Shown: piece by piece, positions 22,283 through 39,829 of the stretch
Layout of the letters: every line of letters begins with the position of its first letter
Numbering within the stretch: position 1 is the first letter of the stretch
Source: a virus
Taxonomy: Duplodnaviria > Caudoviricetes
Strand: one strand, 5' to 3'
Length of the DNA: 47,179 nt
IMG/VR virus record: IMGVR_UViG_3300031701_000001
Coordinates: 1-47,179 of that record
Position numbers and translations under genes: made by a program
Notes under the pieces: model-generated
What the model was told of the DNA's origin: nothing
Seen by the model: the letters and a program-made list of their open reading frames with translations, nothing else
Databases searched by the model: none

Positions 22283-22451
22283 TCAATAATACCACAGATG
22301 CGCCACCTAACTGCTCTGGGGATTTCGCACCAATTTCCACAGGGCTGTTTTATGGGGGGAAAGTGCGAAATACGGCAATCTCGCATCTGGGAAAACACCC
22401 ATCTACACGAAATCTCTTAACCTCCTACAGCAACCCTGCTAGGGTCACCCT

Positions 22452-22706: not shown

Positions 22707-23227
22707 GCGGGAACCACAGTCTGCTCCTGCACAACCTCCGCCGCAACACGCTTCATCTGATCCTTGCTAGGTAATGCAGCCAGAACATTAATGTTCACCA
22801 AGGGCTTGTCCTTCGCCTCCTCAATGCCATGAATCTTTCGTAGCTGATCATCCAAGCGTACCCACGCCTCAATCGCAATCCGCATCTCCTTCATGTCACC
22901 TTGCTGCATCGCCACCACCGCAGCTTGGAATAACGTGTAGAGCTTGTCACCGACTGCCTTGGAGCGCGTGATCACCTTGTCCTTCGTATCACAGATTAAC
23001 GCGGTCTCCGAGTTGTCCTCGGCTCGCTTGATAATCTCGTCCCTCACCTCCTCACGCGCCTTGCGCTGTAACTCGTCCCGCTTGAGTAACCAGTTGTCCT
23101 TGGCTGCGCGGTTGCCAAGGTAACGATAGGAGATGCTCTTCCTGCGAGCATAGTCTTTCAAGGATACGTTGGCGCGTAGGAACTCGGACTCAAGCGCATC
23201 CCAATCATGTTTGCGTGTATTTGCCAT
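22703..23227 (-). CDS. Terminase small subunit-like HTH protein (174 aa from ATG 23227)
   Basis: N-terminal DWDALESEF...SLKDYARRKSISYRYLGNRAAKDNW HTH of the TerS type, followed by a helical oligomerisation-like region. Confidence 0.55.
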   Translation of the reverse strand: MANTRKHDWDALESEFLRANVSLKDYARRKSISYRYLGNRAAKDNWLLKRDELQRKAREEVRDEIIKRAEDNSETALICDTKDKVITRSKAVGDKLYTLFQAAVVAMQQGDMKEMRIAIEAWVRLDDQLRKIHGIEEAKDKPLVNINVLAALPSKDQMKRVAAEVVQEQTVVPA

Positions 23228-23272
23228 AACTGTTGGCAGTATAGTGAAAATCCCAAAAAATTCCACACCCAT

Positions 23273-23336
23273 GTATATATATATATACCCCACCCGAAGG
23301 GGGTTCCCCTTGGCATCCTCCACCCCCCCTATATAG
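23273..23336. other. Candidate packaging/genome-end region: (TA)7 palindrome and C/G tracts
   Basis: GTATATATATATATAC at 23273-23288, then C-tracts, GGGGG and CTATATAG, in the divergent gap between the TerS-like gene and the early region. Confidence 0.35.
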
Positions 23337-23485
23337 ACAAAAAAGCATGCTTTTAAGCCTCGCAAACTGACTAGCAATGCCACCCCACCCCACGTTTACA
23401 GTGTTAACAGAGCGCGAGGGACTCAGAGGGACGCAGTGACCGGGGATGGTGGAAACGATGGCGGCGGCGGCGTGGCGAAAGAAAA

Positions 23486-23516
23486 AGGGCCATTCACACG
23501 CCATGCTTACGACATA
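23486..23516 (+). promoter_or_regulatory. Early promoter-like motif, copy 1 (AGGGCCA-N15-TACGACATA)
   Basis: AGGGCCA ttcacacgccatgct TACGACATA; 5 nt to ATG 23522. Confidence 0.8.
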
Positions 23517-23521
23517 GGGGC

Positions 23522-24391
23522 ATGGCGAAAACCCCGTTACAAAAACAACTACTCAAACTCGGCGCACAATGCGTGGCCGATGATCCCGCATGGCGCGATA
23601 CACTTTCCACCATCTCAGCGCGTGGCGGCGATTGGGAAAAGTACTCAATCGCGTTCACTGAATTCATGGAAGACGGTGTGCCGCGCTTTACGATTTTCGC
23701 CAAGGGCAATAGCAAATTGCCATTCTATGCATTCTCTGCCTTGCCAATCATCACATGCCCCGGCTTCGGGGAATGCGGCGATTGGTGTTACTCATTTACG
23801 GCGTGGCGTTATCCCGCCGCCTATTTTCGGCAATTGCAAAACACCGTTTTAATCGTTCGCAAATCGCCCGCGCTTGCGGAGGCTTTCAACGCCTTGCCGC
23901 GCGGCGTGGATTTCCGCCTCTACGTTGACGGCGATTTTGATAGCGCGGCGAGCCTATCCTTTTGGATGGAATTGCTACGCGCCCGGGCCGATATCCGCGC
24001 CTATGGATATTCTAAATCTTGGCCTTTGTTTTTATCTTACGCGAAAAGCCACGCATTCCCGCCCAACTATAAACTCAATCTATCCGGCGGGAGCCGCTAC
24101 GGGGAAGCGTATTTACGCGCCATGAAAGCCCTTACATGCGTCCGTGGCGAATTCGCGGCCTTTACCGTTGCCACCCGTTTTCCAAGCCAACCCTTGGCCG
24201 TCAAAGCTCCGCGCAAGCATGCCGCGCAAGTCGCACAATACCGCCGCGAAGTGAAACGCGCCGCCATCGATGCCGGGCACAAACGGGTGTTCGTTTGCCC
24301 CGGCAAGTGCGGGGAATGCGTTCGCGGCGGAGTCCATGCATGCGGCTCGGCAAAGTTTGACGGCGTCACCGTAGCAATCGGCATTCACTAA
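23522..24391 (+). CDS. Gp88-like Cys-rich phage protein (289 aa)
   Basis: GNSKL, FSALPIITCPGFGECGDWCY, FRLYVDGDF, YGYSKS and C-terminal CPGKCGEC...C. Confidence 0.7.
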   Translation: MAKTPLQKQLLKLGAQCVADDPAWRDTLSTISARGGDWEKYSIAFTEFMEDGVPRFTIFAKGNSKLPFYAFSALPIITCPGFGECGDWCYSFTAWRYPAAYFRQLQNTVLIVRKSPALAEAFNALPRGVDFRLYVDGDFDSAASLSFWMELLRARADIRAYGYSKSWPLFLSYAKSHAFPPNYKLNLSGGSRYGEAYLRAMKALTCVRGEFAAFTVATRFPSQPLAVKAPRKHAAQVAQYRREVKRAAIDAGHKRVFVCPGKCGECVRGGVHACGSAKFDGVTVAIGIH

Positions 24392-24412
24392 AGGAAAAGC
24401 AACCAAAACAAA

Positions 24413-24443
24413 AGGGCCATTGAACCCACAAACCTACGACATA
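24413..24443 (+). promoter_or_regulatory. Early promoter-like motif, copy 2
   Basis: AGGGCCA ttgaacccacaaacc TACGACATA; 8 nt to ATG 24452. Confidence 0.85.
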
Positions 24444-24451
24444 TAAATAAC

Positions 24452-24718
24452 ATGATAACAATCCCGAAAACACTGAACCCAACACCCGCCTTTGAGATTA
24501 TCGACTCAAATAACGGTTACGCAATATACACCGACACGATCCGACACAAGGATGAAGCTGATCCAGCCTCGCAGTTTGTTTTCAAAAAACTGAGCAATGG
24601 AAACTATGCCCACGCGAGTCTGCATTGTGCAGCGTGGGAGGGTGAAATGGAATGCGAACGCTACGGCATGCACAAAATTCCCGCCATTGTGCAGAATTGG
24701 CTTTCGCGGCAAGTCTAG
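24452..24718 (+). CDS. Early hypothetical protein (88 aa)
   Basis: ATG directly after the motif. Confidence 0.7.
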   Translation: MITIPKTLNPTPAFEIIDSNNGYAIYTDTIRHKDEADPASQFVFKKLSNGNYAHASLHCAAWEGEMECERYGMHKIPAIVQNWLSRQV

Positions 24719-24776
24719 CCCTACACTCTGCTTTTCCAATGGGAAGGCGGAATTGTGCGGTTACCTAACAAATAAT

Positions 24777-24807
24777 AGGGCCATTGAACCCAACAACCTA
24801 CGACATA
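24777..24807 (+). promoter_or_regulatory. Early promoter-like motif, copy 3
   Basis: AGGGCCA ttgaacccaacaacc TACGACATA; 5 nt to ATG 24813. Confidence 0.85.
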
Positions 24808-24812
24808 AAACC

Positions 24813-25043
24813 ATGATGATAAATCCAAACAATGATGGCGACCTTGCAACGCTCAACGCCTCGGCGGCGGCGGCAAGGTTAAGCAACGCAAAGCGCAAAG
24901 GCGTTTGCACACATGAACGGCGGCAACATGCCAACCTTAATTTTAGTCCGGGATGGGATCAAGTTGCGGGCGTTCGATGCCTCGACTGTGGGAAAACCGC
25001 GACATGGGCCCAGCTTGAAGAGGATCGCCAAGAGTGGCTGTAA
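24813..25043 (+). CDS. Early hypothetical protein with CxH...CxxC (76 aa)
   Basis: MMINPNNDG...CTHE...CLDCG; the start is defined by the motif (the track start at 24597 is an upstream extension). Confidence 0.7.
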   Translation: MMINPNNDGDLATLNASAAAARLSNAKRKGVCTHERRQHANLNFSPGWDQVAGVRCLDCGKTATWAQLEEDRQEWL

Positions 25044-25050
25044 AAATAAT

Positions 25051-25081
25051 AGGGCCACAAAGGCCACAAACCTACGACATA
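25051..25081 (+). promoter_or_regulatory. Early promoter-like motif, copy 4
   Basis: AGGGCCA caaaggccacaaacc TACGACATA; 5 nt to ATG 25087. Confidence 0.85.
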
Positions 25082-25086
25082 AAACC

Positions 25087-25311
25087 ATGACTGAAATCGA
25101 TATAAACGGAAACACGAAAAGCACCAACGCCCCCGCATTGCGGGCAAAGGTTAAACGCCAACCCAAGCCCGTGCGGCACTCAATCGAACGGCCCTACATG
25201 CGTGTACGGGTTGCCCTGCCAAAAGGCGGCAGCATTACATTTTTTGCCGATGAGGAACTCGGCCTAACAGAATGGCTGGAGACACATGGCGAGTTCGTTT
25301 TTGACCTTTAA
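25087..25311 (+). CDS. Early hypothetical protein (74 aa)
   Basis: MTEIDINGNTK...; the start is defined by the motif. Confidence 0.7.
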   Translation: MTEIDINGNTKSTNAPALRAKVKRQPKPVRHSIERPYMRVRVALPKGGSITFFADEELGLTEWLETHGEFVFDL

Positions 25312-25464
25312 CAGCCCCAACCCGCCCCCGTTCACGCTGTAAACCACGTTTCCATGCAGCAACGGGGCGGGGGAATGGGCATATAAAAACCTTGTCCAAC
25401 GTATGACGCCCGTTATACAAACACAGCTTTACCAGAAAACACAGTAACTAGCAGCAAAAATAAA

Positions 25465-25495
25465 AGGGCCATTGAACCCACAAACCTACGACATA
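25465..25495 (+). promoter_or_regulatory. Early promoter-like motif, copy 5
   Basis: AGGGCCA ttgaacccacaaacc TACGACATA (identical to copy 2); 7 nt to ATG 25503. Confidence 0.85.
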
Positions 25496-25502
25496 AAGAG
25501 AC

Positions 25503-25775
25503 ATGACAAACGATTTCAAACCCAGCGACTTTTACCATGCCGATTACGCGATTGGCTGTGGCGGCACGGAAACCCCGATCACTTGGGGCGGCAAGTCTTA
25601 CCTTTACGTTTGGAACCGGAAGGCCAAGCGGCATGAATACTACGTCCGCCCCGATGACATGTTCATCCCCGATACGGATGCGCCGTGGATCATTTACCAG
25701 CGGTTCCAGCGAACCGATGCCGGGGCGTGGCGGGGGGTTTGTGAAGATGCGCCGTGCTGCGGTTGCTGCGATTGA
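25503..25775 (+). CDS. Early hypothetical protein ending CEDAPCCGCC (90 aa)
   Basis: ATG after the motif; the GxCEDAPCCGCC tail is seen in phage early proteins. Confidence 0.75.
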   Translation: MTNDFKPSDFYHADYAIGCGGTETPITWGGKSYLYVWNRKAKRHEYYVRPDDMFIPDTDAPWIIYQRFQRTDAGAWRGVCEDAPCCGCCD

Positions 25776-25792
25776 GAATTTAGAAAAATAAA

Positions 25793-25823
25793 AGGGCCAG
25801 CGAGGCCAACAACCTACGACATA
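25793..25823 (+). promoter_or_regulatory. Early promoter-like motif, copy 6
   Basis: AGGGCCA gcgaggccaacaacc TACGACATA; 18 nt to ATG 25842. Confidence 0.85.
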
Positions 25824-25841
25824 TAAATAACAAACAAAACC

Positions 25842-26660
25842 ATGAGTACATTCATTAATCATTGTGGAGCCGAGCCAGTCACGCTGGATCAGCTACGAAC
25901 CTTGGCCGACCCCGTGCCATTCACCGAAACCCATTACCCGATCCGCCATGATCACTTCATTGACGAAATGAAACGGGCCATGATCCCCGGCGGCTTTGAG
26001 ATAACCCGCGAGGAATATTCCCTGCGTCAAGACGCCGATGGCGATCACGGGCACGACAACATGTTTGGCATCCTCGAATTCCAAGGCACGGACGATGGCA
26101 TCGCCCATTGTGCTGCCGTGCGTAACAGCGGGACGCAGGATTTCCGAGCCATGCTTGGTTGCGGCGGGCGCGTATTCGTTTGCGACAATCTGATGTTTTC
26201 AGCACAGATCGTAGTGGGCCGAAAACACACGCGATTCATTGAGCGCGATCTGCCGAAGTTGGCCGGGCAAGCGATCCGCAAGATGAGCTTGCAGTTTGAT
26301 TACGGCGATCTCCGCACCAAGGTTTACAGAGAATCCAAGCTGGGCCAAAGATCAGTCAACGATCTAATGATCCGCACCTTGAATGCCGGGGGTATCCCCG
26401 CCAGCCAAATCCCTGCGTGGATCAAGGAATGTGCTAAACCTGCTCACGAGGAGTTCGGGCGGGGCGATGCGTGGTCATTGCTGAATTGCCACACGGAGAT
26501 CGCCAAGCGATGGAACTTCGATGCGATGCAAACCCGCACACAAATTGTGCAGGGCGTCATCGATCAAGGGTTGAACTTGCACGAGCAGATCAAGCCCCTA
26601 CTCGAAAACAAATATGACGCCGAGGAAATTGCCGAAGCGCAGATTGCAGTAACTGCGTAA
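25842..26660 (+). CDS. DUF932-like phage/plasmid protein (272 aa)
   Basis: TETHYPIRH..F, VRNS..., G.RVFVCDNLMF, GRKHT and WSLLN..TE motifs. Confidence 0.75.
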   Translation: MSTFINHCGAEPVTLDQLRTLADPVPFTETHYPIRHDHFIDEMKRAMIPGGFEITREEYSLRQDADGDHGHDNMFGILEFQGTDDGIAHCAAVRNSGTQDFRAMLGCGGRVFVCDNLMFSAQIVVGRKHTRFIERDLPKLAGQAIRKMSLQFDYGDLRTKVYRESKLGQRSVNDLMIRTLNAGGIPASQIPAWIKECAKPAHEEFGRGDAWSLLNCHTEIAKRWNFDAMQTRTQIVQGVIDQGLNLHEQIKPLLENKYDAEEIAEAQIAVTA

Positions 26661-26671
26661 GGCTGTCATGG

Positions 26672-26706
26672 CCCCGCCTCCGAGTTTACTTGGGGGCGGG
26701 GATTTT
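26672..26706 (+). terminator. Putative intrinsic terminator
   Basis: ccccgcctccgag-ttta-cttgggggcgggg followed by atttt, after the DUF932-like stop. Confidence 0.55.
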
Positions 26707-26731
26707 AGAAAAAGGAAACCAGAATGAAATT

Positions 26732-27124
26732 ATGAAACTAATCACACTACTCCTAGCCATGCCATTCGTGGCCCATGCAGCCCCGCACAAAGACCTTGGC
26801 CGCTTCCTTGACGCCCTTCACCGGGTTGAGACCAGCGGCGGCACGGGGCCGATCAAGGGCGACAATGGGCGAAGCCTTGGCCCGCTACAAATCAGCAAGG
26901 CGTATTGGATGGACTCGAAAGCCCCCGGCAAGTACGCAGATTGCGCGGGCCTAGCCTACTCGCAGAAGGTGGCCATCGCTTACTTTGAAAGGTATTGCCC
27001 AGCAGCATTGAATCAAGGCGACTGGGAGAAGCTGGCTCGCATCCATAACGGAGGGCCGCAGGGGCATCGCAGGAAATCGACCTTGGCGCATTGGCGCAAG
27101 GTGAAGAAGGAGATGGGGAAATAA
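26732..27124 (+). CDS. Secreted lysozyme-like (i-type/destabilase-like) peptidoglycan hydrolase (130 aa from ATG 26732)
   Basis: Signal peptide MKLITLLLAMPFVAHA; VETSGG, GDNGRSLGPLQI..YW.D and ARIHNGGP.G motifs. Confidence 0.75.
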   Translation: MKLITLLLAMPFVAHAAPHKDLGRFLDALHRVETSGGTGPIKGDNGRSLGPLQISKAYWMDSKAPGKYADCAGLAYSQKVAIAYFERYCPAALNQGDWEKLARIHNGGPQGHRRKSTLAHWRKVKKEMGK

Positions 27125-27126
27125 TT

Positions 27127-27318
27127 ATGGCACGGGGAAGAAGACCAAAGTTTACAGCCGAAACCGCTGACCGGATCAAGCGACATTGGGAGGAGTCAGA
27201 TCGATCCATGAAAGAGATCGCGGACATGTGGCAATGCGCCCCCGGCACGGTGGATAGAATTATCATGGGCAAATATACCCCCATCGAGGAATGGGAAAAC
27301 TTTAATTACGAAAACTAA
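27127..27318 (+). CDS. Small HTH DNA-binding protein (63 aa)
   Basis: GRRPKFT...SMKEIADMWQCAPGTVDRII. Confidence 0.7.
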   Translation: MARGRRPKFTAETADRIKRHWEESDRSMKEIADMWQCAPGTVDRIIMGKYTPIEEWENFNYEN

Positions 27319-27319
27319 A

Positions 27320-27350
27320 AGGGCCAGCGAGGCCCGAAACATACGACATA
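27320..27350 (+). promoter_or_regulatory. Early promoter-like motif, copy 7
   Basis: AGGGCCA gcgaggcccgaaaca TACGACATA; 8 nt to ATG 27359. Confidence 0.85.
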
Positions 27351-27358
27351 TAAATAGC

Positions 27359-27538
27359 ATGAGTAACTTACAAAACAAAAAAGCGGTGCGCGACCTAGCC
27401 TTGAGCCTTGCCAATGGCGGGCGGGTACGGGTAGCGTCCAGCTTCCACGAGTACATCGACGCCGCGATACGCACGGCGGTTAGCCAGCGTGTGAACCATC
27501 ACGACAACAAAACCGGACGCCGCAAGACGTTGGTGTAG
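27359..27538 (+). CDS. 59-aa histone-fold-like protein (not in the ORF track)
   Basis: MSNLQNKKAVRDLALSLANGGRVRVASSFHEYIDAAIRTAVSQRVNHHDNKTGRRKTLV*; has its own promoter motif; RV[AS] loop, long helix and RKTL end. Confidence 0.6.
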   Translation: MSNLQNKKAVRDLALSLANGGRVRVASSFHEYIDAAIRTAVSQRVNHHDNKTGRRKTLV

Positions 27539-27565
27539 AGGGGAAACATATAAATATATAAAGCT

Positions 27566-27772
27566 ATGAAAACTAAACCCAGAACGATGGATGTCACACC
27601 AAACTATCAGTCCATATTTGAATTGTGTAAGCAATTAGTGCGATCAGAGATGGATAAAGAAAACGGCCAAGACCTAGTCTTGGAGATGCTTGAGTACGGC
27701 CAACGCATGGATGCTGGCAATCAGATGATGCAGAAGAATTTGGCTGCAAAGTACGAGGAGACAACACGATGA
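27566..27772 (+). CDS. Hypothetical protein (68 aa)
   Basis: ATG after an AT-rich leader; coupled to the next gene. Confidence 0.6.
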   Translation: MKTKPRTMDVTPNYQSIFELCKQLVRSEMDKENGQDLVLEMLEYGQRMDAGNQMMQKNLAAKYEETTR

Positions 27773-27957
27773 ATACAAAATACACCATCCCCGATCACTG
27801 GGACACGATTGGTCTTATTACGGGGGAATCAAACGCAATCGCAGAGTATGCGCTGTGGAAGGAGGGTGATTGTGGCGAGTGGCGCGGGGATGAGTTCACG
27901 TTAGCCACCTTTGAGGATTACATTGACAAGCTGAAAGAACAGGAGGCAACACGATGA
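27769..27957 (+). CDS. Hypothetical protein (62 aa) flanked by a 19-bp junction repeat
   Basis: AGGAG RBS and ATGA overlaps at both ends. Confidence 0.6.
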   Translation: MNTKYTIPDHWDTIGLITGESNAIAEYALWKEGDCGEWRGDEFTLATFEDYIDKLKEQEATR

Positions 27958-28352
27958 ATGAATCACGAAGCCGCAGCCTCGCCCAGCTACTAACCATGCC
28001 ATTGGCAGAGCTTGAGGCTATCAAAACCGCGAGCGAGATCGCCATCGCAGCCGCCAAGGAAAAGAGGGAGGCGGCAAGTGAAGCCGTCGCTGCCGCCGAA
28101 TGGCGATTGTCAGATGCTTTGAATGAGGAATCTATCGTAGTCGAGGAGGACGATACGATATGCGTGGCGTATTTCGCCAGAGAAAGGCTCGTTGCCCTCA
28201 AGTATCCAGCGGGATTGCTTGTGGCACTGGAGAAGATCGCGCATGAGTACGAGAACGAGGTTAGCTCGAAAGGTTTGAGCCGCATCGCTATGAACGCAAT
28301 CATGGAGTCGGAGTATATACGAGAAAAAGAAAACGAGGAGACCCCCCAATAA
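27954..28352 (+). CDS. Hypothetical protein (132 aa)
   Basis: AGGAGG RBS and ATGA overlap; helical. Confidence 0.65.
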   Translation: MNESRSRSLAQLLTMPLAELEAIKTASEIAIAAAKEKREAASEAVAAAEWRLSDALNEESIVVEEDDTICVAYFARERLVALKYPAGLLVALEKIAHEYENEVSSKGLSRIAMNAIMESEYIREKENEETPQ

Positions 28353-28357
28353 GAACC

Positions 28358-28591
28358 ATGCCACACATACGCGCTGATGTCCTTGCAACCAAGGGCAATT
28401 GTCAGCAGCTACTCAAGGCTCTCAACGGGCATTGGGTAAATGACTTTGCGGACTCCGAATCCTTTCATAGCATGGCTACCATGCTGGCCAAGGAGACGGG
28501 GGTACTGCGGAACCTAGACAAAGAATCAATCCACCACATAACTAAACTAATAAACGAAACTAAAAAACTATGCCCTCAGAACAATTCTTGA
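28358..28591 (+). CDS. Hypothetical protein (77 aa)
   Basis: Operon continuity. Confidence 0.5.
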   Translation: MPHIRADVLATKGNCQQLLKALNGHWVNDFADSESFHSMATMLAKETGVLRNLDKESIHHITKLINETKKLCPQNNS

Positions 28592-28818
28592 AAACGCACT
28601 GGCATGTGACGAACAAGCCACGCTGGATTAACACCCGTCACATCATATGGTTCACCCCAACTGTCGAACCCGATGCGGGCGCGGATGTGTACTTAACGTG
28701 CGATAATGATGCAACCCATGAGTTCATCGCCGTCAACGAAACCCCCGAAGAACTGATCGACCAGCTTACAGCCCTAATCGACCAGCGGTGTTCCGGTAAC
28801 GATCCTGCACACGATTGA
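28570..28818 (+). CDS. Hypothetical protein (82 aa)
   Basis: WIN..HI...V.ETPEEL pattern (FlbD-like small proteins); converges on the giant gene. Confidence 0.5.
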   Translation: MPSEQFLKTHWHVTNKPRWINTRHIIWFTPTVEPDAGADVYLTCDNDATHEFIAVNETPEELIDQLTALIDQRCSGNDPAHD

Positions 28819-31800
28819 TTCGGGCCACGCCACTTGGAACATTCTTCCTTGCCCAGCGTAGGAAAGCATTCTGCGTGTCGGCCTTGGTTTGCATGCCCAC
28901 TCGGATGGGTTGATTGCTACGCACCACGCTCTTCAAGGATCGCAAGGACATGCCCATCTCCACCAGCGCATCCTTGGCTTCCCGTGCCGCATCAATATCG
29001 CCAGCAAGCAGCGCGTCCTTGAGGTTCACCTTTTTCGTGGTGTACTTGTCATCCGAGAAGATGCCGTTGAACTTGGACTCCACGGAGATACCCGTTTCCT
29101 CGCCAAACCTACGGGCCAAGGTGCGCGTGTAAGAAAGGTCACGCTTCGCAGCCCATAACCCCTCGGCGGGTTTGCCCGTGGCAAGTTCTTCGGCTCGACG
29201 ATACCAGCCGCGACCCAATCCCTCGGTCTGCTTCGCAAGCGGGATGTTCCTAGCCATCTCTACAAATTCCTGCTGGGCTGCTTCGGCAGACATTCCTTTC
29301 TGATACCAGCTACGCCCTGCCCCGATTAAATCGTTGGCGAGGTTGAACAACGGCGGCTTGAACGGGTCTTTCCAGCGACCACCACGGGTGGCTTGCTCCT
29401 TGGCGAGCATCGCGTAGTCACCCCAGAACCCAGTAGCTCCGGTGAACACCATGTTCTTAGTAACTCGCTCCAAAATTTTAGCCAACTTTTCTTCCTCGGC
29501 CTTGTCGATCTCTTCCAAGGATGGATCGCGGCGTTCCTTGTCCGTGAACAGGCCGCTCAACCATTGCAGCAACTCACCGAATAACATGCCACCCGCGAGG
29601 AACCGGATCGCGGGCATTGCTGTGCGATACTTCTTGCCACCCACCTTGGTTCCAAATACCAGTGGCGAGGTCACATTCATAATGATGTCGCGGCCACGTT
29701 GGAATGTCCACCGCTGGAACTGGAGCATCAGCTTGGTGATGCCGCCTTGATTGCCCATGAACAACGGGTGCTGTGCAATCGAGTAAGTGTATTGCTTCTC
29801 GGCCACACTGCGCCGGGCAAACTCTTCCACCAAGGATTGATCGCCAGACAAAAGTAGCTGGGCCTCTTCTTCTGTAAACTTCAATCGCTTCAATGCAGCC
29901 ACGCGCTGTGTCGCCAAGTACTCACCCTTCCGGTTGGCGTAGATGGCGCGGCTGGCCCGTAACCAATTCAAGCTGGCTCCCATTGTCACGCCACGCGCCA
30001 AGCGATCCATTGATTGCTTGAAGTATAATGCTTTGTTGCCAACCTCGCTTATTGCCTTGTCACCTTTGCCCTCGGAGAGACGTTCCTCCATTATCTGCGC
30101 TTGCTGGAAATCCTCCGTGATTGCCCCCATGCCCATCGCTTCCTCGACTAGCTCGGATGACTCAGCCTTCCAGTTGCGTTGGGACACATTCCGTAGCGTC
30201 CTGCCAACGGCCCGTGCCGCTTGCACCAAGGCTCTTCCCCCTTCGGGCAAGGTGGCGCGGAAACCGAACTGCTCATTAGCCAGCATCACGCCGCTTACAA
30301 AGTCACGCACCGCAGTGAAGTAACCCGATAAGTAACTGATACCCGTGATCGATACAGCCCGCTCAAAGAAACGTGATGACTTGGTGGGCGTTTGGCGGCG
30401 GCGGTAGACTGTGTTGGCCACCTCTTTCAAGTAATCCCGTACCGCTTCGTCGTGCCGCGCTGCCTTTATGGCCGCGCCAAATGCGTCTGCTGATTTATTT
30501 GTGGTCTGGCTAAACGCCCAGACTTGGGCTGCGCGGTTACTGAATTGCAGCAGGAACTGCAAGTAACCGTCCACGCTGGTATCATAAAATTCCTTGGGCA
30601 TCCGTAAGCCACGGGCGCGTTCCACGTTGGCCATGAACTCGCCGCCCTGCATCTCAGCCCCGCTGATCATGCCAGCCAAGTACTCCTCGGCAGCAGCGTC
30701 ACTCTCCAGCCCGTCCCGCACCAGCGCGTCCTTCAAACTTTGATACAAGGCTGGGTCGCGGCTGGGTTCATTGATCACATCGAGAACCCTCTGGGATAGG
30801 CGGCGGGGATAATGCAAACGCCCCATGTTCTTCAGTGGCCTCCATTTACCCTTGCCTTCTTGCACTTGGATACCCAGTTCATCCGATAACCCGCCCGTCA
30901 TCTCCGCAGTATCCTCGACCACGCGAATGAGGTTGATCGCGTTTCCATTGGTCATGTTGGTTAAGTGATCCGCTGCCCGCGCACGAGCATCGCGAGCCTC
31001 GCGCTTGATGATCACGCTCAAGGCCCGCTCAAGACGATTGTACTCTGTCCAATCCGGTTGCTCTGCCCCTTGGTTGCGTTGCTTGATTTTCCTCATCTGG
31101 GTCAAGAGGGTATGCACTGCTTGCGTTGACCCGTAGTCCTCCCGAATCTCAAAGTATTTCCCAGCTTCCTCGTGAGCTTCCTTGATCTCGGTACTGGTCA
31201 GCGGCTTCTCCCAGTTTCGCATCCCCGCGAACAGCTTGCCTTGGTACTCGCCCTTCTTGATCTCGTACTGGTACACGCGCTTGGCTAACTTGCTCAAGCC
31301 AATGTCTTCCAGTGTGTCCACTACCGAAAGCCAGTCACCTTTTATGAGCCTTAAAGCCTTCGCCCCAAGCCCACCGAAACTTACGCTGACTGGATCGCCA
31401 TTGTCACCCGCAGTTATCACGGCATCGATCTGTTCCTTGGTTGCAAACTTTGCAGCGTCCTCCTCTGACATGGTAGACCCTTCCAACGGATCGTAGGCGT
31501 AGGTGGCATTCAACTCATGGTTCTTGTCAACCATGCCCTGCTCAATGTCGATGGACTGGAAGACGATGCTGCTGGTCTTCTCGGTGATAGTGGTGTTACG
31601 CACTTGCTCATTCACCAGATCAGCGATGGGCTTGAAGATTTCTGCGTGGGCGGTGTTTTGGTCTCCGGTCACATCGCTGAAATCCATAGTGATGCCACCT
31701 CCAACACTCCCTTTGTGAACCACCGCATACGCACTCTGAATTGAAATCTTGCGCTTAAACATTCTAAGAAGGTCGGACTGCGAGACGATGTCACCGTGAA

Positions 31801-34800
31801 AAACGGTTGCTCCAAGCCCGGAACCACCCACGGCATTGGTTAACTGCTTGCCGCTTCTTTTGTCTGCTAAATATAATAGAGCATACTCGCCTTCTTTCTT
31901 TTTAATTCCAGAAAAGTCACGTTCTCTTTGCTTCACCTCCACCCATTCTGGGAATTCATACATGCTCTCGGCATGCTGCGCGGCTTCCTCCATCACAATG
32001 CTTTGAGCAGCTTTCTTTGTCTTGTGCGTAGAGGGCGTGTAGCTCCCCTCGCTGGGGTCAGCTACAATCAACTCAAAGCCCTCTTGATGGGACAGCACTG
32101 TATCGGTTAACGCTCCGCTGCCACCCGCTTTCTTCGCATACTTCTTAAACTTTTTCGGGATGATCTGGTCGTACAACATGTAAGCCCAGTCCATCTGGCT
32201 GACTTCTTTTTCGAGGGTGTAGGAGGCTTCGGGGGTAAGTAAAAAATTTTCCAGATTTGATTTGAAGGTGCGCGAGCTTCCCGACGGTATCGTGGCCAAC
32301 ACTGCCTCATGCTGCTCATCTGCCGCGCTCGCTGCTTCTTCAGCACCCTTTTTACCAATCAACTTGGCCAGCTTGGATTTGGTTACGTCAGTATGGTAAC
32401 CCGGAAGACGAATTTCCTCTCTATTCCCACCCGAATCATCCTCTTCCTTCCCAAAGTAGCGTACCGTATAAGTCCATTGCCGCACCCCATCCACCACCTT
32501 CTTCTGGTCGCGAGATATTTTCAACGACTTAACAGGGATATCAAGTTTGGAATATCGCTTGGCTGTCTCGGTTCCGTTCATCCAAGATACCTTGGAGTAA
32601 CCGTTTTCAATTGCCCACCGAAGCATACGTTTCACAGCCAGATCGTTATGCCGTGCTTTCATGGTTGGCTCTGGGGTCAGCCTATTCCCGCCACCACTGT
32701 CTTCGGCATCTGAAATCTTCTGCTCAAGGCGCATCACTATGTTGTTATAGTTGTGATACAGCTTGTTTGCTAATTGCTTGGAGCGGACACGCGCGTTGCG
32801 ATTCTTGTCTCGATCAGCCAACGCTTTGTCAAATTCAGCATCGGTCATATCCCCCATCGTTTTTTCATCCCGCTTCAAACGATATTTTTGGGTGCGATCC
32901 CGGAGAGCTTTGTAGTGCTTTAGATCAGCCTTCCACTTGGCCAGTTCTTCCGCCGTGAACCCCATCCCCTCGCCCAATGCATTCCGATAATCCTTCGCCC
33001 AGTCAGACTGCAATTCTTCGATGAACAAAATCTTGTTGCCGTTCTCGTCTACCCGATCATCAAACCTCACATGTACTACCACGTTCATGTCCCGCCAGTG
33101 GCTGGACTGGTACTTGACGGGGGCATCAGCGTCACCCATCATCGTGGGGTTCAAAGGCACGGTCAATCGCATCTCGCGATATGTACCCGGCTCGTAGCCC
33201 TTCAGCACCAAGTCACCTTGGCCGTAAGTTTCCCACCTTGTCTCGCTGCCCTCGGCTACTACCTCGTCTACTGTGACTTGGTTCATGCGGATGAAGGCCG
33301 CAACGTCTTCCTTGTGAACTTGGCCGGGCTTTAGGTTCTCATGGTCAGAAACTGCCAGCCTCCACTCTCTGTCATAGGCTTGCGTGTTCAGTTCCTCTTC
33401 CAACCCAAGGATATCAATCTCGTCCTGCGTGACACCGGGGGACTTCTTCAGCTTGGCAAGCAACTGATCCGGTGTCCAAACGTCTTGAGGTAATCGCTCG
33501 GTAACCGCAATCATCTTGCTGAAGAATCCTGCGTTGCCAGTATGGCTAACATCGAGATCACCCGCCATTGGATCAAAGGCGAATTGCTTGGTGCTGTCTG
33601 GTCGCCGCCGCCCACGCCGTGCTTCTTCAATCCGCTTATTTTCAAGCGATTCGCGGGTATCAATGTGAGTAAGCTCAACATTTTCGGGGCGTTCCATCAA
33701 CGTACTCGTAGCACTCTGCACTCGTGCAAGGACGGTCACATCGTTATAGCTAATCCCCAAAAGCGTAGCGATGTGACGCTTGAGCGTGTCCCACAAACTA
33801 TTCAAGCGGCCCATCGACGGGTAAAATGAGTTTCTCTGTTCCGCTGGGTCAGCAATGTCACTCATCTTGATGGACTGTAGAAATTTTTGAAACTTTCTGT
33901 CGGACATTGCTTCAGCCATCATTTCGTGAACGTCAGCCAACCCGTAATAATACTGGTTTGATGAGTATCCTACTCGCGAGTCCTTTGCGCCTTTGTAGAA
34001 ACTTTCGGGCTGATTGGATAATCTGTGGTGAATCAGATTCAACTCGACCACCGCAATCTCAGACTCGCTGGGTTTTCCTCCCTTGGTGAAGTCGTCAATA
34101 ACGGCTGCAACCCATTCTGAATTTAAGCCCCTCTCACGTTGGTTGAGCCAGAAATTCTCACCCCCTAAACGGTCGGCTGACCTTTTCACCACGTCATCGT
34201 GGGCGCGTGATGTTTTCCCGTGGACAATTTCGTGAATCGTGGTGGTGGTGTACTCTTTGATTTGGGCACTCATTCTAATCGAGTCTTTCAACTCTCCCGT
34301 TTCTTGAACGACATCTGGTTTCCATGCGCTTGTTTTTGAGAAGTCATCAAGAACGTGTTCAATCGGTATATCTGGGGTAGTCCCTTTGAGAACTTGCTCA
34401 CTCATCACCTTCTCAAGCTCGTTTCCATTGGCTATGATGTATTCCAGATTGCCGTGTGCCGTTGGTGGAGCATCGAATAACCCTTTTAGGAATTCGGGAG
34501 AGTTTGATACTCCCTCGTTTAAGGCTAGGGCGCGGTCTATTCTGGCAGCTTCCGCTGACTCGGCTGGGGTGGGATTATCCAGTTCTGACTCAAGTGGAGG
34601 TGACTCAACTGGGGCTGACTCAACTGGGGCGAATTCACGAACGGACTTATCATACTCAAGGTATTCCTTGGAGGTTTTCGGATGCATTGGATCAAAGGCG
34701 AATTGCTTGGACTCTGACCGGACATCCCCAAAACTTCGCCAATCTTTTCTGCTGCTAGTCTCGGACTCCATTACCGTGGAGGAAGAATCCATAACCCTAC

Positions 34801-37800
34801 TAAGAACATTAGCTTCCTCTATGTTAAGGCCAAGCACATCAGCTACGGCTTGCTTGAATCTGCTCCATAGATTTGCCGTCCCGCTTACGCCTCCCTCGCG
34901 CTGCACACCCCCCTTAAAGTTATCAAGCCCTAGCTCAGAGACTTTGATGCCCTTCAAGTAGTTCCTAAACGTGGGGTTAGACCACGCTTCAGCAATCATC
35001 TCATCAAGATTTGTTGCCCCGTATAAATCTTTCCTCTTGAAGTCATCCCGCAGCAGCAGCCTGTTGTACATCCAATGAAGTTCCGCCGCCGCCAGTTCTT
35101 CGCGGGAGACGGGGTCTTCGCGGAAAGATGCCTCTTTGCCCGCCTTCTCCGAAATGACCTCAAGCCACTCGCTAGTATTGTCATAGGTTCTTGCCCTTTC
35201 ACCGCCGTGATCCTCAAACAGCCCAAGCCGATCCATAGAATCTTGAACGACATTGCTAATTTTCCGTATGGCCTTCGCGTGTGCTGCTTCGTGAAGAGTT
35301 ACTCCGGTTAAACTTGGAGACTCACGAGATACTTCAATGGAATGCCTCCGCGTACTGTATGCTCCCCACGTTTTCGACGCACTGCCCGCCATTTGTGAGT
35401 TAAGATTGGGCTTAAATGAAAGCGCAGCGGCCTCGGTGGTTCCTTTCATCAGCCCTTCAGCCAGTGTTCTTGCCTCGGCAGACGGGCTTTCTTTGGCTAT
35501 AACCTCCAGTGCTTCGTTGTCAGTTTTACTCTGTGAAATTCTTTCATCGACCGCCGGGGTTGTCTCTATGGTATACGCATCTGCTCTGCCAGAAGTCTCA
35601 GCCTCTGCTGCCATTGGATCAAAGGCGTATTGCCTAGTACCATCGCCAACATCCCCCCTTGCTCGATCAAGGTCTCGCTTGATAACTGGGATCACCTTCT
35701 CCACGGGAGCCAACTCTCGCGTCAAGGCATCTACGATGTAGACCTCCCCATCCTTGCCCTTCAGCACATTCTGGTGATGCAGATCGCCATGCACAAAGGA
35801 TCGGTTTCCGATCACCGAGACCGCTCGCTTGACATCATCACCGATCATTACCTCAACTCCTGTGGGGGGCATCAGTTCTAGATTGCGGGTGCGGAGGTGC
35901 TTGGCAAGGTCATCGGGTGATGTGTCAACTGCATTAACATAGCGTTGCTTCGTTACAATGCCGCTCTCTACCACGCCAACAATCTCGGTGAAGACAAAGC
36001 CCCCATGATTGTTCTCTGCCCGCAGCCTCTCGGAAAACTGAAGGAAACTCTGGTTCTTATGGAGACTGTACCCCTCCAAATAGCCCGATTGATCGGCGCG
36101 GAAGTGACCCACCGGAGCCGCTTTGCCAATCCCTCCATCGGGCAGCAAGTTTACGATCTTGTACACCGCCATATTATCAATATCGAGGTACACCTCCGCC
36201 TCAGAGCCTTTATCGTGGTACTTGTATTCCCCCTCCAGCTTGGAGCGGGAAAGGAGCCGCAACTCGCGGCGAAGATTCTTGATGAGAGGGGCAGCTTTAT
36301 CGACTGCGACATCTTCAGTGGGGTGAAGCAGCGCGTCGAGTGTGAATACAGACGCTTCGTCTGGGGTTAGACCGAGACCAAGCCCGATTTCCTCAGACGC
36401 TCTAAAGATGCCTTGTGAGATTGCCGCCGCTCTTCTTCGGACATTATCGGAGAAGTCGGCCCCGTGGGCGGGTAACCTCTCGCCTCCCAAAGTTGTTTTA
36501 ATCGGGCTTGAATTTCTGGGGGGTAGGATTCCAGACTGGGCTTTGGTGAATTGGTCGCGCTTAAAGGCATTGGCGTTACTGTACTCCGACATTTCGCTTT
36601 CGTCAAGGGGATCAAAGGCCCATTGAGCGTGGTCTTTCGTCCCCGACTTCTCTGACATTCTCTTCTTGAACTCTTTGTTGGCGTTCTCTAATAAGACACG
36701 GTATTTCTTTCTAGTGATCCCTAGGTCTGTGTAAGATTCTACACCAGTCATCCCCTTCATCGTGTTTCTCAGAACGGCGGCTTGATCTGCGTCCATCTCA
36801 CTCAGCACCTCTTCCATCCTCTCGGCGCGTTGCTCAAGAGACAACACCTCATCTGGAGTGACGGCCCCCGTGTCTTGCATCACATCGCCAACCGTGCCGC
36901 CATCTTCCCCTACCTCCTTTTGCATCGAGGTGGCATCCGCGAGATTCGTCCTCACCCCAGTTGCGCCTATGCCTTCTTTGGAGCGAGTGAAATCAATTGC
37001 TAGAAGCCCTGCTCGTCGGCCAAGGGCACTGGCTAATTGCTTGTCCGACATGGCATCGAATTGCCCAGCAGCCGCTTGTTTAAGTAATGCATCCTCTACA
37101 AAAATCCGAGCCGCATCCCTCTGGTTGGCGGGCAGCTTATTAACTGCGCGGCCAGCAGCAGCCATGATCCGTTCAGCAACTGCTTCCGCATCGCGCCCAT
37201 CGATTTGCTCTTGCACCAGTGCCGCTGCATCAGCCTTAGCCTTCTCGGTAATTTCAGCCCGCGCCTTCTTTGCCGCTTCGTCCCGTGCTTCTGCGTCCGC
37301 CTCGGACTTCGCGGTTCTTGCATCTGCCCGTTCCGTTGCTGCCTCGGCCCCTGCTTTCTCAGTGGTTGGCTTTGCTGCCTTCTTCTTCGCGGGCTTAACC
37401 TCTGCTGCCTCCGCTGCTTCCGCTGCTTCCGCTGCTTCCGCTGCTTCCGCTGCTTCGTCTGCCGCCTCGGCCATTGCATCCTCGTCCAAGGCTGCTTCTT
37501 CCGCTGCCTCTGCTGCCTCCTCCTCCTTCTTCGCGGGCTTAACCTCCTCCGCTGCTTTCACCTCGGTCTTGGCCACCTCGGTCTTGGCTACTTCGGTCTC
37601 GGCCACCTCGGCCCCCTTGCCCTTCTGGGTCTTGAGGAACTTCTCGACTGCCTTGATCTCCTTCGCGATGCGCGGGTTGATTAACGTGCCCGTAGTCTTC
37701 TTGAAGAACCGGATGATGGAGTTGAGAGCTTTAGTTAGGTAACTATCGTTCTTCGGTTGCCATCCTTCCGTTGTCTTACCCGTAGCAATGCGCTGCCACG

Positions 37801-39829
37801 AATACCTAATAAATTCCTCGGCCAATTGCGCTTCGCTCTCTTGTTCCCCCCGCTTCTTGCGAATCTTGAGAATCTTGGTGCGCTCTTTCTCCGTCATCTC
37901 ACTCCACACACCCTCCAATTTCTCCTCGCGGAAAGATGTCCAAGCAGCCGTGTCGGATGGATCGCCTCCCGCTGCCAGAAAATCTGCGAACATTGCACGG
38001 TCACGGGCAACATGTCGGCCCTCTTCGTCTACGGCCCTCGCGATGTAGTCGGGGCGACGAGCAACAGCATTGTTGTCCTTCGTAAGGAAGTCCAAGTCCA
38101 CCTCGATTACCCCGCTACCCCTGTCTTCGGGCCTAACAAAAATGCCACCGCCACCTCGGTTAGTCTTGATGCTCAATGTCCCAGACTCCAGCCCCAGCCG
38201 CTCTTCCACTTCCTTCACCGCCTTGACTACCGGAGTCATCACTGCACTGGACTGCTCGTCAGCTAACGAGGCATCAGTGACATCAATGGTAACACCGTCA
38301 CGCTTGATTACCTTGGGCTTGGTGCGGGCGGGCATTGTGGGAAGGTCGGGATCGGAGCGATCAGTGACGGCATAGTTTCCTTCCTCATCAAGAATCTCGA
38401 TAGTCTCGCGGCCCGGTTTATCTAGTCGTGACTGCGACTCAACCCCCGCTGCGGAGTCTTCCATTGCTTCGGCTGCTGGCCCTTGAGGGAATGCGTCCTT
38501 GGCCAAGACTCCAGTCATATCAAAGACAATCTCTTCCCGAAGGAGTTTGGCCTTTTTCTCTAATACTTCTGCGGTTTCTGGAGAATTATTTTCTCTCGCT
38601 TCTTTTGCATGCTTCTCAAGTTCCGCTGCTCGCTGCGCCTTGCGCTGAACACTGGCAACCGAGGAATGAACCCCCCCGAAAAGAGCCCCCACCAAGCCGC
38701 CAACCAACGCAGCTTCCCCTAGTCCATGTCTTACGTCTCTTAGCTCATCGTACTTGGCTAGATGTGCAGCGGTAAGGTTGAGCAAGAGTGTCTGTCCAGC
38801 TTCTTGCGTGGCCTCTGATGCCGCTGCCCCAGCCACATTACCAAGGTAAGAGCCAGCGATATCTCCCCATCTACCCTTTGAAGCCCTATCCATTCTCGCA
38901 AGTAATTTTGAACTTGCGCCCCCCGCGCCGAATGCCTCAGTAAGTCCACCCACTGCATTAATGCCGAACGCAAGCCACAGCTTGTTAAGTTCTTCTGGCG
39001 TTGGTTCTCGGCCCTCGTCCGCTGCCTTCTTGTAAACATGGTAACGGGCATCCTCCCAGCCACCAACGCCGTTAACTGCTGCGCCAAGTGGGGCGACACC
39101 CTTCCACCGATACATTGCCGCCAAGGCTTGCTGCTCTGCTATTCCTCCCTCGGCAAACTTGGCTGCAATTTCTTTCGTCTTGAGTGCGCCGATCTTTTCA
39201 AGCTCCTTCAACGTGGCTCCAGAGACCGGGCCACCGTGGGCTAACCCCCTTGTTGCATCTGTCTTGGCTGCTTGTTTGGCCAGAGCTTTCTTGCCAGTAG
39301 CTAGTACTGAGGCTTTTGTTGCAGCCTTAAACGGTGCAGCAAGAAGCCCACCTCCAGCCATGAACCCTAGACCAGAGCCAATTCCGCTTGCAGCCTTGTC
39401 AGCCCAAAATTCCCCCTCGTATTCTGGGTTTCTCCACTCATCTGGGAAAATCGCTTTCCCCATCTCATCAAAGCCAACACCTATTTGGTAAAGAGGGTTA
39501 TAAGTGAGCGGTGTGTCCAAGGGTTCCCCCGCAATCCCGCCAAGAGTTTTATCTATCGCGAATTTCCCAACAAGACCGCCAGCCTTAAACAAGTCGGCCA
39601 CTGCGGTGCTGACGAAAGTTTGGCCAAGGCCAACAACAGCAGTGCTAAATCGCCCTCGTTCTAACCGCGCAAAACGCTTTTCCCTCGCCGCCCTTTCCCT
39701 CTCATCCATGTGGGATACATCTCGACCCATTGTCCCCGAAGGGCTGGCGTAAAGGTACGAAATATTATCTTCCTCTTCGTAAACCTCCTCCAACGAAAGT
39801 GGTTGCTTGTCTTGTTCTGTGACCTCCAT
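28766..39829 (-). CDS. Giant polyvalent virion/ejection protein (3687 aa): sigma-like, kinase-like, two zincin peptidase and other modules
   Basis: Uninterrupted 11-kb ORF with an AGGAG RBS; last gene of the podovirus-like tail/ejection operon; HExxH twice, HGDLHxxN, ECF-like regions 2 and 4, five AFDP-type motifs. Confidence 0.9.
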   Translation of the reverse strand: MEVTEQDKQPLSLEEVYEEEDNISYLYASPSGTMGRDVSHMDERERAAREKRFARLERGRFSTAVVGLGQTFVSTAVADLFKAGGLVGKFAIDKTLGGIAGEPLDTPLTYNPLYQIGVGFDEMGKAIFPDEWRNPEYEGEFWADKAASGIGSGLGFMAGGGLLAAPFKAATKASVLATGKKALAKQAAKTDATRGLAHGGPVSGATLKELEKIGALKTKEIAAKFAEGGIAEQQALAAMYRWKGVAPLGAAVNGVGGWEDARYHVYKKAADEGREPTPEELNKLWLAFGINAVGGLTEAFGAGGASSKLLARMDRASKGRWGDIAGSYLGNVAGAAASEATQEAGQTLLLNLTAAHLAKYDELRDVRHGLGEAALVGGLVGALFGGVHSSVASVQRKAQRAAELEKHAKEARENNSPETAEVLEKKAKLLREEIVFDMTGVLAKDAFPQGPAAEAMEDSAAGVESQSRLDKPGRETIEILDEEGNYAVTDRSDPDLPTMPARTKPKVIKRDGVTIDVTDASLADEQSSAVMTPVVKAVKEVEERLGLESGTLSIKTNRGGGGIFVRPEDRGSGVIEVDLDFLTKDNNAVARRPDYIARAVDEEGRHVARDRAMFADFLAAGGDPSDTAAWTSFREEKLEGVWSEMTEKERTKILKIRKKRGEQESEAQLAEEFIRYSWQRIATGKTTEGWQPKNDSYLTKALNSIIRFFKKTTGTLINPRIAKEIKAVEKFLKTQKGKGAEVAETEVAKTEVAKTEVKAAEEVKPAKKEEEAAEAAEEAALDEDAMAEAADEAAEAAEAAEAAEAAEAAEVKPAKKKAAKPTTEKAGAEAATERADARTAKSEADAEARDEAAKKARAEITEKAKADAAALVQEQIDGRDAEAVAERIMAAAGRAVNKLPANQRDAARIFVEDALLKQAAAGQFDAMSDKQLASALGRRAGLLAIDFTRSKEGIGATGVRTNLADATSMQKEVGEDGGTVGDVMQDTGAVTPDEVLSLEQRAERMEEVLSEMDADQAAVLRNTMKGMTGVESYTDLGITRKKYRVLLENANKEFKKRMSEKSGTKDHAQWAFDPLDESEMSEYSNANAFKRDQFTKAQSGILPPRNSSPIKTTLGGERLPAHGADFSDNVRRRAAAISQGIFRASEEIGLGLGLTPDEASVFTLDALLHPTEDVAVDKAAPLIKNLRRELRLLSRSKLEGEYKYHDKGSEAEVYLDIDNMAVYKIVNLLPDGGIGKAAPVGHFRADQSGYLEGYSLHKNQSFLQFSERLRAENNHGGFVFTEIVGVVESGIVTKQRYVNAVDTSPDDLAKHLRTRNLELMPPTGVEVMIGDDVKRAVSVIGNRSFVHGDLHHQNVLKGKDGEVYIVDALTRELAPVEKVIPVIKRDLDRARGDVGDGTRQYAFDPMAAEAETSGRADAYTIETTPAVDERISQSKTDNEALEVIAKESPSAEARTLAEGLMKGTTEAAALSFKPNLNSQMAGSASKTWGAYSTRRHSIEVSRESPSLTGVTLHEAAHAKAIRKISNVVQDSMDRLGLFEDHGGERARTYDNTSEWLEVISEKAGKEASFREDPVSREELAAAELHWMYNRLLLRDDFKRKDLYGATNLDEMIAEAWSNPTFRNYLKGIKVSELGLDNFKGGVQREGGVSGTANLWSRFKQAVADVLGLNIEEANVLSRVMDSSSTVMESETSSRKDWRSFGDVRSESKQFAFDPMHPKTSKEYLEYDKSVREFAPVESAPVESPPLESELDNPTPAESAEAARIDRALALNEGVSNSPEFLKGLFDAPPTAHGNLEYIIANGNELEKVMSEQVLKGTTPDIPIEHVLDDFSKTSAWKPDVVQETGELKDSIRMSAQIKEYTTTTIHEIVHGKTSRAHDDVVKRSADRLGGENFWLNQRERGLNSEWVAAVIDDFTKGGKPSESEIAVVELNLIHHRLSNQPESFYKGAKDSRVGYSSNQYYYGLADVHEMMAEAMSDRKFQKFLQSIKMSDIADPAEQRNSFYPSMGRLNSLWDTLKRHIATLLGISYNDVTVLARVQSATSTLMERPENVELTHIDTRESLENKRIEEARRGRRRPDSTKQFAFDPMAGDLDVSHTGNAGFFSKMIAVTERLPQDVWTPDQLLAKLKKSPGVTQDEIDILGLEEELNTQAYDREWRLAVSDHENLKPGQVHKEDVAAFIRMNQVTVDEVVAEGSETRWETYGQGDLVLKGYEPGTYREMRLTVPLNPTMMGDADAPVKYQSSHWRDMNVVVHVRFDDRVDENGNKILFIEELQSDWAKDYRNALGEGMGFTAEELAKWKADLKHYKALRDRTQKYRLKRDEKTMGDMTDAEFDKALADRDKNRNARVRSKQLANKLYHNYNNIVMRLEQKISDAEDSGGGNRLTPEPTMKARHNDLAVKRMLRWAIENGYSKVSWMNGTETAKRYSKLDIPVKSLKISRDQKKVVDGVRQWTYTVRYFGKEEDDSGGNREEIRLPGYHTDVTKSKLAKLIGKKGAEEAASAADEQHEAVLATIPSGSSRTFKSNLENFLLTPEASYTLEKEVSQMDWAYMLYDQIIPKKFKKYAKKAGGSGALTDTVLSHQEGFELIVADPSEGSYTPSTHKTKKAAQSIVMEEAAQHAESMYEFPEWVEVKQRERDFSGIKKKEGEYALLYLADKRSGKQLTNAVGGSGLGATVFHGDIVSQSDLLRMFKRKISIQSAYAVVHKGSVGGGITMDFSDVTGDQNTAHAEIFKPIADLVNEQVRNTTITEKTSSIVFQSIDIEQGMVDKNHELNATYAYDPLEGSTMSEEDAAKFATKEQIDAVITAGDNGDPVSVSFGGLGAKALRLIKGDWLSVVDTLEDIGLSKLAKRVYQYEIKKGEYQGKLFAGMRNWEKPLTSTEIKEAHEEAGKYFEIREDYGSTQAVHTLLTQMRKIKQRNQGAEQPDWTEYNRLERALSVIIKREARDARARAADHLTNMTNGNAINLIRVVEDTAEMTGGLSDELGIQVQEGKGKWRPLKNMGRLHYPRRLSQRVLDVINEPSRDPALYQSLKDALVRDGLESDAAAEEYLAGMISGAEMQGGEFMANVERARGLRMPKEFYDTSVDGYLQFLLQFSNRAAQVWAFSQTTNKSADAFGAAIKAARHDEAVRDYLKEVANTVYRRRQTPTKSSRFFERAVSITGISYLSGYFTAVRDFVSGVMLANEQFGFRATLPEGGRALVQAARAVGRTLRNVSQRNWKAESSELVEEAMGMGAITEDFQQAQIMEERLSEGKGDKAISEVGNKALYFKQSMDRLARGVTMGASLNWLRASRAIYANRKGEYLATQRVAALKRLKFTEEEAQLLLSGDQSLVEEFARRSVAEKQYTYSIAQHPLFMGNQGGITKLMLQFQRWTFQRGRDIIMNVTSPLVFGTKVGGKKYRTAMPAIRFLAGGMLFGELLQWLSGLFTDKERRDPSLEEIDKAEEEKLAKILERVTKNMVFTGATGFWGDYAMLAKEQATRGGRWKDPFKPPLFNLANDLIGAGRSWYQKGMSAEAAQQEFVEMARNIPLAKQTEGLGRGWYRRAEELATGKPAEGLWAAKRDLSYTRTLARRFGEETGISVESKFNGIFSDDKYTTKKVNLKDALLAGDIDAAREAKDALVEMGMSLRSLKSVVRSNQPIRVGMQTKADTQNAFLRWARKNVPSGVARINRVQDRYRNTAGRLGL
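37380..37610. repeat. Low-complexity E/A/K linker repeats in the giant gene
   Basis: (gctgcttcc)n encoding EAA repeats; cttcttcgcgggcttaacctc (EVKPAKK) twice; TEVAK repeats. Confidence 0.8.

Follow-up and report, generated by a model that had tools for sequence, protein, structure and literature searches.

A candidate virion-delivered sigma factor and a seven-site promoter-like array in a 47-kb phage genome

We analyzed a 47,179-nucleotide (nt) sequence of a tailed phage (Caudoviricetes; IMG/VR record IMGVR_UViG_3300031701_000001; hereafter the window, meaning this whole stretch) that carries an unusual pairing of features. For a module within a 3687-amino acid (aa) protein of the tail/ejection region, models predict the fold of a complete bacterial sigma factor. 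A cluster of small genes next to the gene for this giant protein contains seven exact copies of a bipartite promoter-like site. We think it probable that the sigma factor is injected with the phage DNA and fires this cluster early in infection using the host core RNA polymerase.

The sigma module and the promoter-like array

Structure prediction together with profile comparison models residues ~880-1066 of the giant as sigma2, a sigma3.2 finger and sigma4. The predicted sigma2 (aa 880-951; 36977-37192, - strand) would provide core binding and -10 recognition, a sigma3.2 finger-like stretch identified by profile comparison follows (aa ~963-987; 36869-36943, - strand), and the predicted helix-turn-helix of sigma4 (aa 997-1062; 36644-36841, - strand) would recognize the -35 element. 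This arrangement, a helical sigma2 domain with a sigma4 helix-turn-helix domain C-terminal to it, is that of the sigma-70 family. The module spans about 190 aa without sigma1.1 or a globular sigma3, and its two domains are joined by a low-confidence linker that includes the finger. Its best structural matches are extracytoplasmic function (ECF; group 4) sigma factors such as SigL, CnrH, SigW and RpoE, with which it shares the compact sigma2 plus sigma4 design. Unlike them, it retains a finger of the primary-sigma kind (E = 0.001 for the module profile against SigA 257-316; E = 1e-4 for NCBIfam RpoD_Cterm), scores under the ECF family cut-offs and lies inside a 3687-aa reading frame. ECF sigma factors are typically free-standing, have a neighboring anti-sigma factor and autoregulate their own promoter; a genome-wide search placed no copy of the array motif upstream of the giant's operon. 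The window module has no Pfam match and its best NCBIfam match, TIGR02937, reaches 21.2 bits against a cut-off of 42.9; the homologous module of a related phage, G009, exceeds the Pfam Sigma70_ECF cut-off. The sigma domain that an original prediction, made from the letters of the window, had placed in this protein is thus borne out as a predicted sigma2/sigma3.2/sigma4 fold with weak sequence scores.

The case for injection comes mainly, and indirectly, from the N-terminus of the giant. Residues 1-440 (38510-39829, - strand) resemble the part of N4-like virion RNA polymerases (vRNAPs) that serves injection and lies outside their catalytic region: they match positions 225-457 of the virion RNA polymerase profile phrog_2206 weakly (E = 7e-4), and the same profile matches four of seven aligned relatives (best E = 3.7e-7). 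This N-terminal region alone matches a vRNAP profile; segments spanning the whole giant gave no single-subunit RNA polymerase domain in Pfam, NCBIfam or PHROGs. The gene itself (28766-39829, - strand) is the last and largest of the tail/ejection run and has virion genes as neighbors, with tail-collar genes and a weak match to an SU10 adaptor upstream of it.

The putative target of the module is the site AGGGCCA-N15-TACGACAT, which occurs exactly seven times, always on the + strand, between 23486 and 27349; 100 shuffles gave a mean of 0.10 copies and a maximum of one. Both blocks are invariant and 15 nt apart, the spacer sequence is variable, and the site is non-palindromic. An ATG begins 6-19 nt 3' of every copy (6-9 nt in six of seven), and the 12 bases 5' of each contain 7-9 A. 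The seven alternative-sigma-like promoters of the original prediction are therefore confirmed as exact copies in front of start codons. Site 1 (23486-23515) precedes a Gp88-family gene (PF17338, E = 2.5e-18) that diverges from a putative terminase small subunit gene. Sites 2 to 5 (24413-24442, 24777-24806, 25051-25080 and 25465-25494) precede genes of 88, 76, 74 and 90 aa with ATGs at 24452, 24813, 25087 and 25503, respectively. Site 6 (25793-25822) precedes a 272-aa gene (ATG at 25842), with genes for a destabilase-type lysozyme and a helix-turn-helix protein 3' of it, and site 7 (27320-27349) precedes a 59-aa gene (ATG at 27359) and small genes onward to 28818. The cluster, which otherwise encodes small hypothetical proteins, begins divergently from the putative terminase small subunit gene and continues until it meets the giant gene at the latter's 3' end. 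A sigma-70 promoter scan found no + strand site between 23486 and 28766; over 19 kb it listed 11 sites where 14 would be expected. Read on the reverse strand, five of the seven copies are scored as hairpins of the terminator type.

Several further observations concern these elements. An eighth copy with two mismatches lies inside the exonuclease gene (17522-17551), without an A-rich flank or open reading frame start. The cell-wall hydrolase-like gene of the cluster is a destabilase both in the window (26690-27124) and in the related phage G006 (40664-41074; 61% identical), and its counterparts in G009 (near 24990) and G015 (6815-7177) are, by motif, presumably SleB-like and RlpA-like. Outside the cluster, TTGCAT-N17-TATACA lies near 14318-14346 at the head of the DnaB operon, before a small ribbon-helix-helix gene (PF01402, E = 0.001; to 14548). 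The same slot in several relatives holds what is presumably an integrase gene, which the window does not have.

Based on these features, we propose that the giant would be packaged and ejected with the DNA, as its N-terminal likeness and gene position suggest, and that its sigma module would associate with the host core RNA polymerase and guide it to the seven sites. Sigma4 would then read GGGCCA and sigma2 would read and open TACGAC, and the A-rich flank may serve the host alpha subunit as an UP element. Cluster mRNAs with short, nearly absent leaders would appear early, before any phage translation. A different timing, which we hold to be unlikely, is that the module is indeed the cognate sigma factor of the array and acts in the producing cell, where either the whole giant or a fragment released before packaging would turn on the cluster midway through infection or late. 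Known phage sigma factors drive middle and late genes (PMC8948821), and the P1 protein DdrB is processed before packaging (PMC5512222). The destabilase gene of the cluster has a signal-peptide-like start, and the DnaB element described above looks by eye like the replication operon's own sigma70-like site, unflagged by the scan, so that infection could begin without the module. However, the cluster looks early, with its small genes, its Gp88-family gene and, in G009, a gene that is presumably ArdC-like and anti-restriction. A sigma factor needed only late would gain nothing from residing inside an ejection-type protein.

Module and array pairs among related phages

We compared the window with 20 related virus records taken whole, 4 from earlier searches and 16 of 34 searched; a giant of the window's kind is present in 11. 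Five homologous giants (P0081-P0085) all retain the sigma module, followed by a border of the type A[FY][DN]P, and three of the five were found without recourse to the profile (E = 1e-103, 9e-67 and 2e-35). These proteins have the N-terminus, a degenerate zincin-like domain and a kinase in common and differ in the modules between borders; the full C-terminal domain is present in four, P0082 being truncated. Among the 11 giant-bearing relatives, a sigma module was detected by our tools in six (G006, G009, G015, G022, G028 and G029), and the giant of G012 is sigma-like by eye only. Profile searches found no sigma factor in the giants of G002, G003, G010 and G011, a weak absence since every profile misses known modules.

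The small-gene region was available over at least 3 kb in three of the six sigma-bearing relatives (G009, G006 and G015), and in the first two a bipartite array stands alongside the module. In G009, whose terminase is 78% identical to that of the window and whose sigma module is homologous (hhalign 94%, E = 1.4e-7, 170 columns), the same genomic slot contains TGAGCA-N14-AACGAAT at seven sites within two mismatches, and five sites match a 16-base pattern exactly. For G006, whose region is truncated to 3.5 kb, inspection by eye gave two copies of CCCCGCACGAAA-N8-GACGAATA, each in front of an ATG. The downstream element contains ACGA in all three phages and the upstream elements differ. Counting the window, all three phages in this comparison that have the order sigma then kinase plus the common C-terminal domain (the window, G009 and G006) bear bipartite arrays. 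Short tandem repeats containing CTAACACCGAGGCGATG lie directly 5' of two of the promoter-like sites in G009 (L147:3120-3200 and 4130-4220), and G006 has a weaker third copy of its motif, with identical spacing, 5' of its DnaB gene (2734, - strand).

Two results weigh against an injected sigma factor that fires the cluster. G015, a complete genome with a sigma module, has no array above background, and the searches for sigma modules miss known ones. Motif finders likewise failed to find the promoters of the 7-11 sigma factor (PMC8948821). The covariation of sigma domain and motif is partial, supported by G009 and G006, each with its own module and array, and not by G015; the injected sigma factor of the original prediction gains from the module, the array, the ejection-type N-terminus and the distinct module-array pairs in three phages, and loses from the same genome. 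G015 speaks for a second explanation, in which the array is the target of an alternative sigma factor of the host, whereas the injected module either blunts host transcription as a decoy by tying up core polymerase or serves a few other promoters. The site is indeed shaped like an ordinary ECF promoter, and Bacillus sigmaX has CGAC at its -10 element. We nevertheless consider this explanation improbable: three related phages each combine a different upstream element with a different module, and a decoy needs sigma2 only, yet none of the five homologues has lost sigma4 or the sigma3.2 finger.

A third explanation is that the array is not a promoter array at all and instead consists of operators, RNA elements or cassette-recombination repeats before early genes, unrelated to the module. 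Palindromic arrays do precede small genes in two relatives in whose giants we detected no sigma factor, so arrays can arise in this slot without a detected one: TCTTAAGAC-N4-GTCTTAAGA in G002 (13 sites, at 14833-22305 and 34606) and TCTTAAGTC-N4-GACTTAAGA in G003 (9 sites, at 21746-28181 and 36114). The reverse-strand hairpin scores and the very short distance to most of the ATGs point the same way. Against this stand the invariant blocks at fixed distance, the variable spacer, the lack of a palindrome, the A-rich upstream flank and the recurrence of the two-block design in G009 and G006, and we judge the explanation to be very unlikely. In keeping with the original prediction, which had tied the motif to the sigma factor, the window's motif is missing from G002, G003 and G011, relatives in which no sigma factor was detected. 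In G011 we found no array in the 5.2 kb available, from which the terminase-proximal part is missing, and only 1.1 kb of the small-gene region is available for G010.

One pair of near-identical homologues provides a more specific example of variation. P0081 and P0084 are 93% identical overall and 98% identical over sigma4 but only 26-52% identical over aa 801-950 (sigma2 and the linker), so that sigma2 has been exchanged as a unit. P0081 has its sigma4, and not its sigma2, in common with G006. Such a sigma2-only exchange is what would be expected if promoter specificity were being varied. P0083 differs instead in the kinase and the next module.

Other giants and more distant genomes show features of their own. 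The G011 giant (L167:11661-12950) has an ART-PolyVal match above cut-off and the C-terminal domain in common with the window, with no sigma or kinase match; the ART-PolyVal domain is possibly an alternative, Alt-like cargo. Clustered words occur in distant relatives without a giant gene (AATCC-N2-CGCGC, five copies, G019 20893-22985; CCGCG-N-GAGCG, six copies, G020 23188-26763). Small free-standing frames of 91-109 aa with weak sigma4-like matches are found in G017 (32000-32098), G018 (43832-43945), G019 (23924-24022) and G021 (43836-43934), also distant relatives.

Layout of the giant protein and its genome

The remaining parts of the giant, all on the - strand, are those of a segmented protein. 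A conserved domain (aa 476-736; 37622-38404), kept in the homologues, contains EEGRH at aa 602, a zincin-like motif in degenerate form, from which we infer a zincin. It is followed by an Ala/Glu/Lys-rich linker (aa ~740-878; 37196-37612), the length of which varies among homologues, and then by the sigma module. An AFDP border (36608-36619) lies directly C-terminal to the module, further AFDP borders are at 35615-35626, 34688-34699 and 33569-33580, and an AYDP border is at 31487-31498. Between the borders are a kinase of the polyvalent-protein type (35660-36232; Pfam Kinase-PolyVal, E = 0.0015, under the cut-off) and two zincin-like metallopeptidases. The first (34970-35392; HEAAH at aa 1513, EMIAE at aa 1610) rests on motifs with no profile match, and the second (33890-34342; HEIVH at aa 1866, EMMAE at aa 1969) has in addition a weak match to phrog_37402 (E = 1e-4). 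In G009, the module C-terminal to sigma gives a Kinase-PolyVal-type match above the cut-off. A motif search thus finds two complete HEXXH plus downstream Glu motifs in the giant; a Pfam search of the protein gave no metallopeptidase (MPTase) match. The conserved C-terminal domain (aa 2778-3687; 28769-31498) is 49-54% identical in homologues, 41% in G009 and 28-29% in G010 and G011. The N-terminal vRNAP likeness together with the kinase and zincin modules identifies the giant as a polyvalent ejection-type protein.

The original prediction had noted an AFDP boundary after the sigma domain and a flexible linker before it. Both are present; the release of the module at AFDP that this implied received no direct support. 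The module could be active while tethered on its long linker, as in the N4 vRNAP, or the zincin domains could excise it at AFDP, and we rate a tethered or late-cut module at least as likely as AFDP cleavage. Three of the borders share a 26-nt DNA repeat (family D15; 88-100% identity), and the AFDP motifs may therefore mark points of recombination at which modules are swapped.

The window is a complete 47 kb phage genome, circularly assembled, with an exact 81-nt terminal repeat (1-81 and 47099-47179) and profile matches for terminase, DnaB, exonuclease and tail-fibre genes. Searches of annotated GenBank phages gave no relative by capsid or portal and distant matches only by terminase. Two genes of 555 and 297 aa directly upstream of the giant (39839-42421, - strand) had no family match in profile searches; by position, they are likely smaller ejection proteins, given the three-protein ejection set described in PMC13434306. 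The capsid protein is 38-40% identical to that of the window in G006 (4855-6096), G011 (7121-8299) and G024 (15565-16764), where the terminase is 66-76% identical, and from these comparisons two capsid types appear to be exchanged within the phage group.

Known systems and early transcription

We looked for the closest parallels among described systems. Phage-type polyvalent proteins (PMC5512222) are, like the giant, very large, multidomain neighbors of virion genes with a Kinase-PolyVal-like domain and zincin-like MPTase motifs (HEXXH plus a downstream Glu helix, their hallmark according to Iyer et al. 2017); their modules vary between relatives, and delivery with the DNA is proposed for them. 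They differ in cargo: the transcription cargoes discussed in the available text are N4-like RNA polymerases and ADP-ribosyltransferases, and "sigma" occurs zero times in the main text, to which supplements might add such architectures. We would class the giant among polyvalent proteins of the ejection type, its cargo being one that this main text does not mention.

In N4, gp50 consists of a membrane-associating N-terminal domain, a low-complexity linker of about 100 residues and then the polymerase, and is believed to remain tethered once ejected (PMC13434306). The giant resembles this Schitoviridae vRNAP in size, N-terminal region, low-complexity linker, transcription module and a zincin motif further on; the domain order is that of gp50 with sigma in the place of the polymerase, and, as gp50 does in N4, the injected giant would serve early promoters. 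Unlike gp50, the giant has no detected polymerase domain, its ~190-aa sigma cargo would need the host core, and its sites are bipartite. The early promoters of N4 are hairpins. Redirection of host core to phage-specific promoters, as proposed here, is known from phiEco32 gp36 and 7-11 gp47; the latter reads the bipartite GTAAtg-(16)-aCTA, and related phages differ in sigma factor and consensus alike (PMC8948821). Those factors are encoded by separate genes and made during infection for middle and late transcription, whereas early genes use host sigma70; phage sigma factors are likewise treated as separate genes in the available part of PMC7824862. T4 Alt, which is packaged and then injected, diverts the host RNA polymerase to phage DNA (PMC5512222), as the giant might, but it modifies the polymerase chemically and supplies no promoter specificity subunit. 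By these analogies, the system is best read as working like the N4 vRNAP in delivery and like gp36 and gp47 in chemistry, as a member of neither group. No virion-carried sigma factor was described in the literature searched, which covered titles and abstract openings and few subscription papers. What this case would contribute is a full two-domain module and named cognate motifs in three related genomes.

On balance, we lean towards the view that a podovirus-like phage family starts infection with a virion-delivered sigma factor in the slot of the N4 polymerase, forming a phage-specific holoenzyme on entry, and that it diversifies with a private array in each phage, down to a sigma2-only exchange between near-identical phages. 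Known phages start with a host sigma factor, an injected polymerase or chemical alteration of the host polymerase. An injected sigma factor, if true, would add a further early-transcription strategy to host-sigma promoters, virion polymerases and Alt-type modification, and would be a much cheaper route to translation-independent, phage-specific early transcription, by which anti-defence genes could fire at once. Given that three natural sigma-promoter pairs (the window, G009 and G006) are named in sequence, their specificity can be tested in vitro without host or phage, and the pairs could serve as orthogonal promoter systems.

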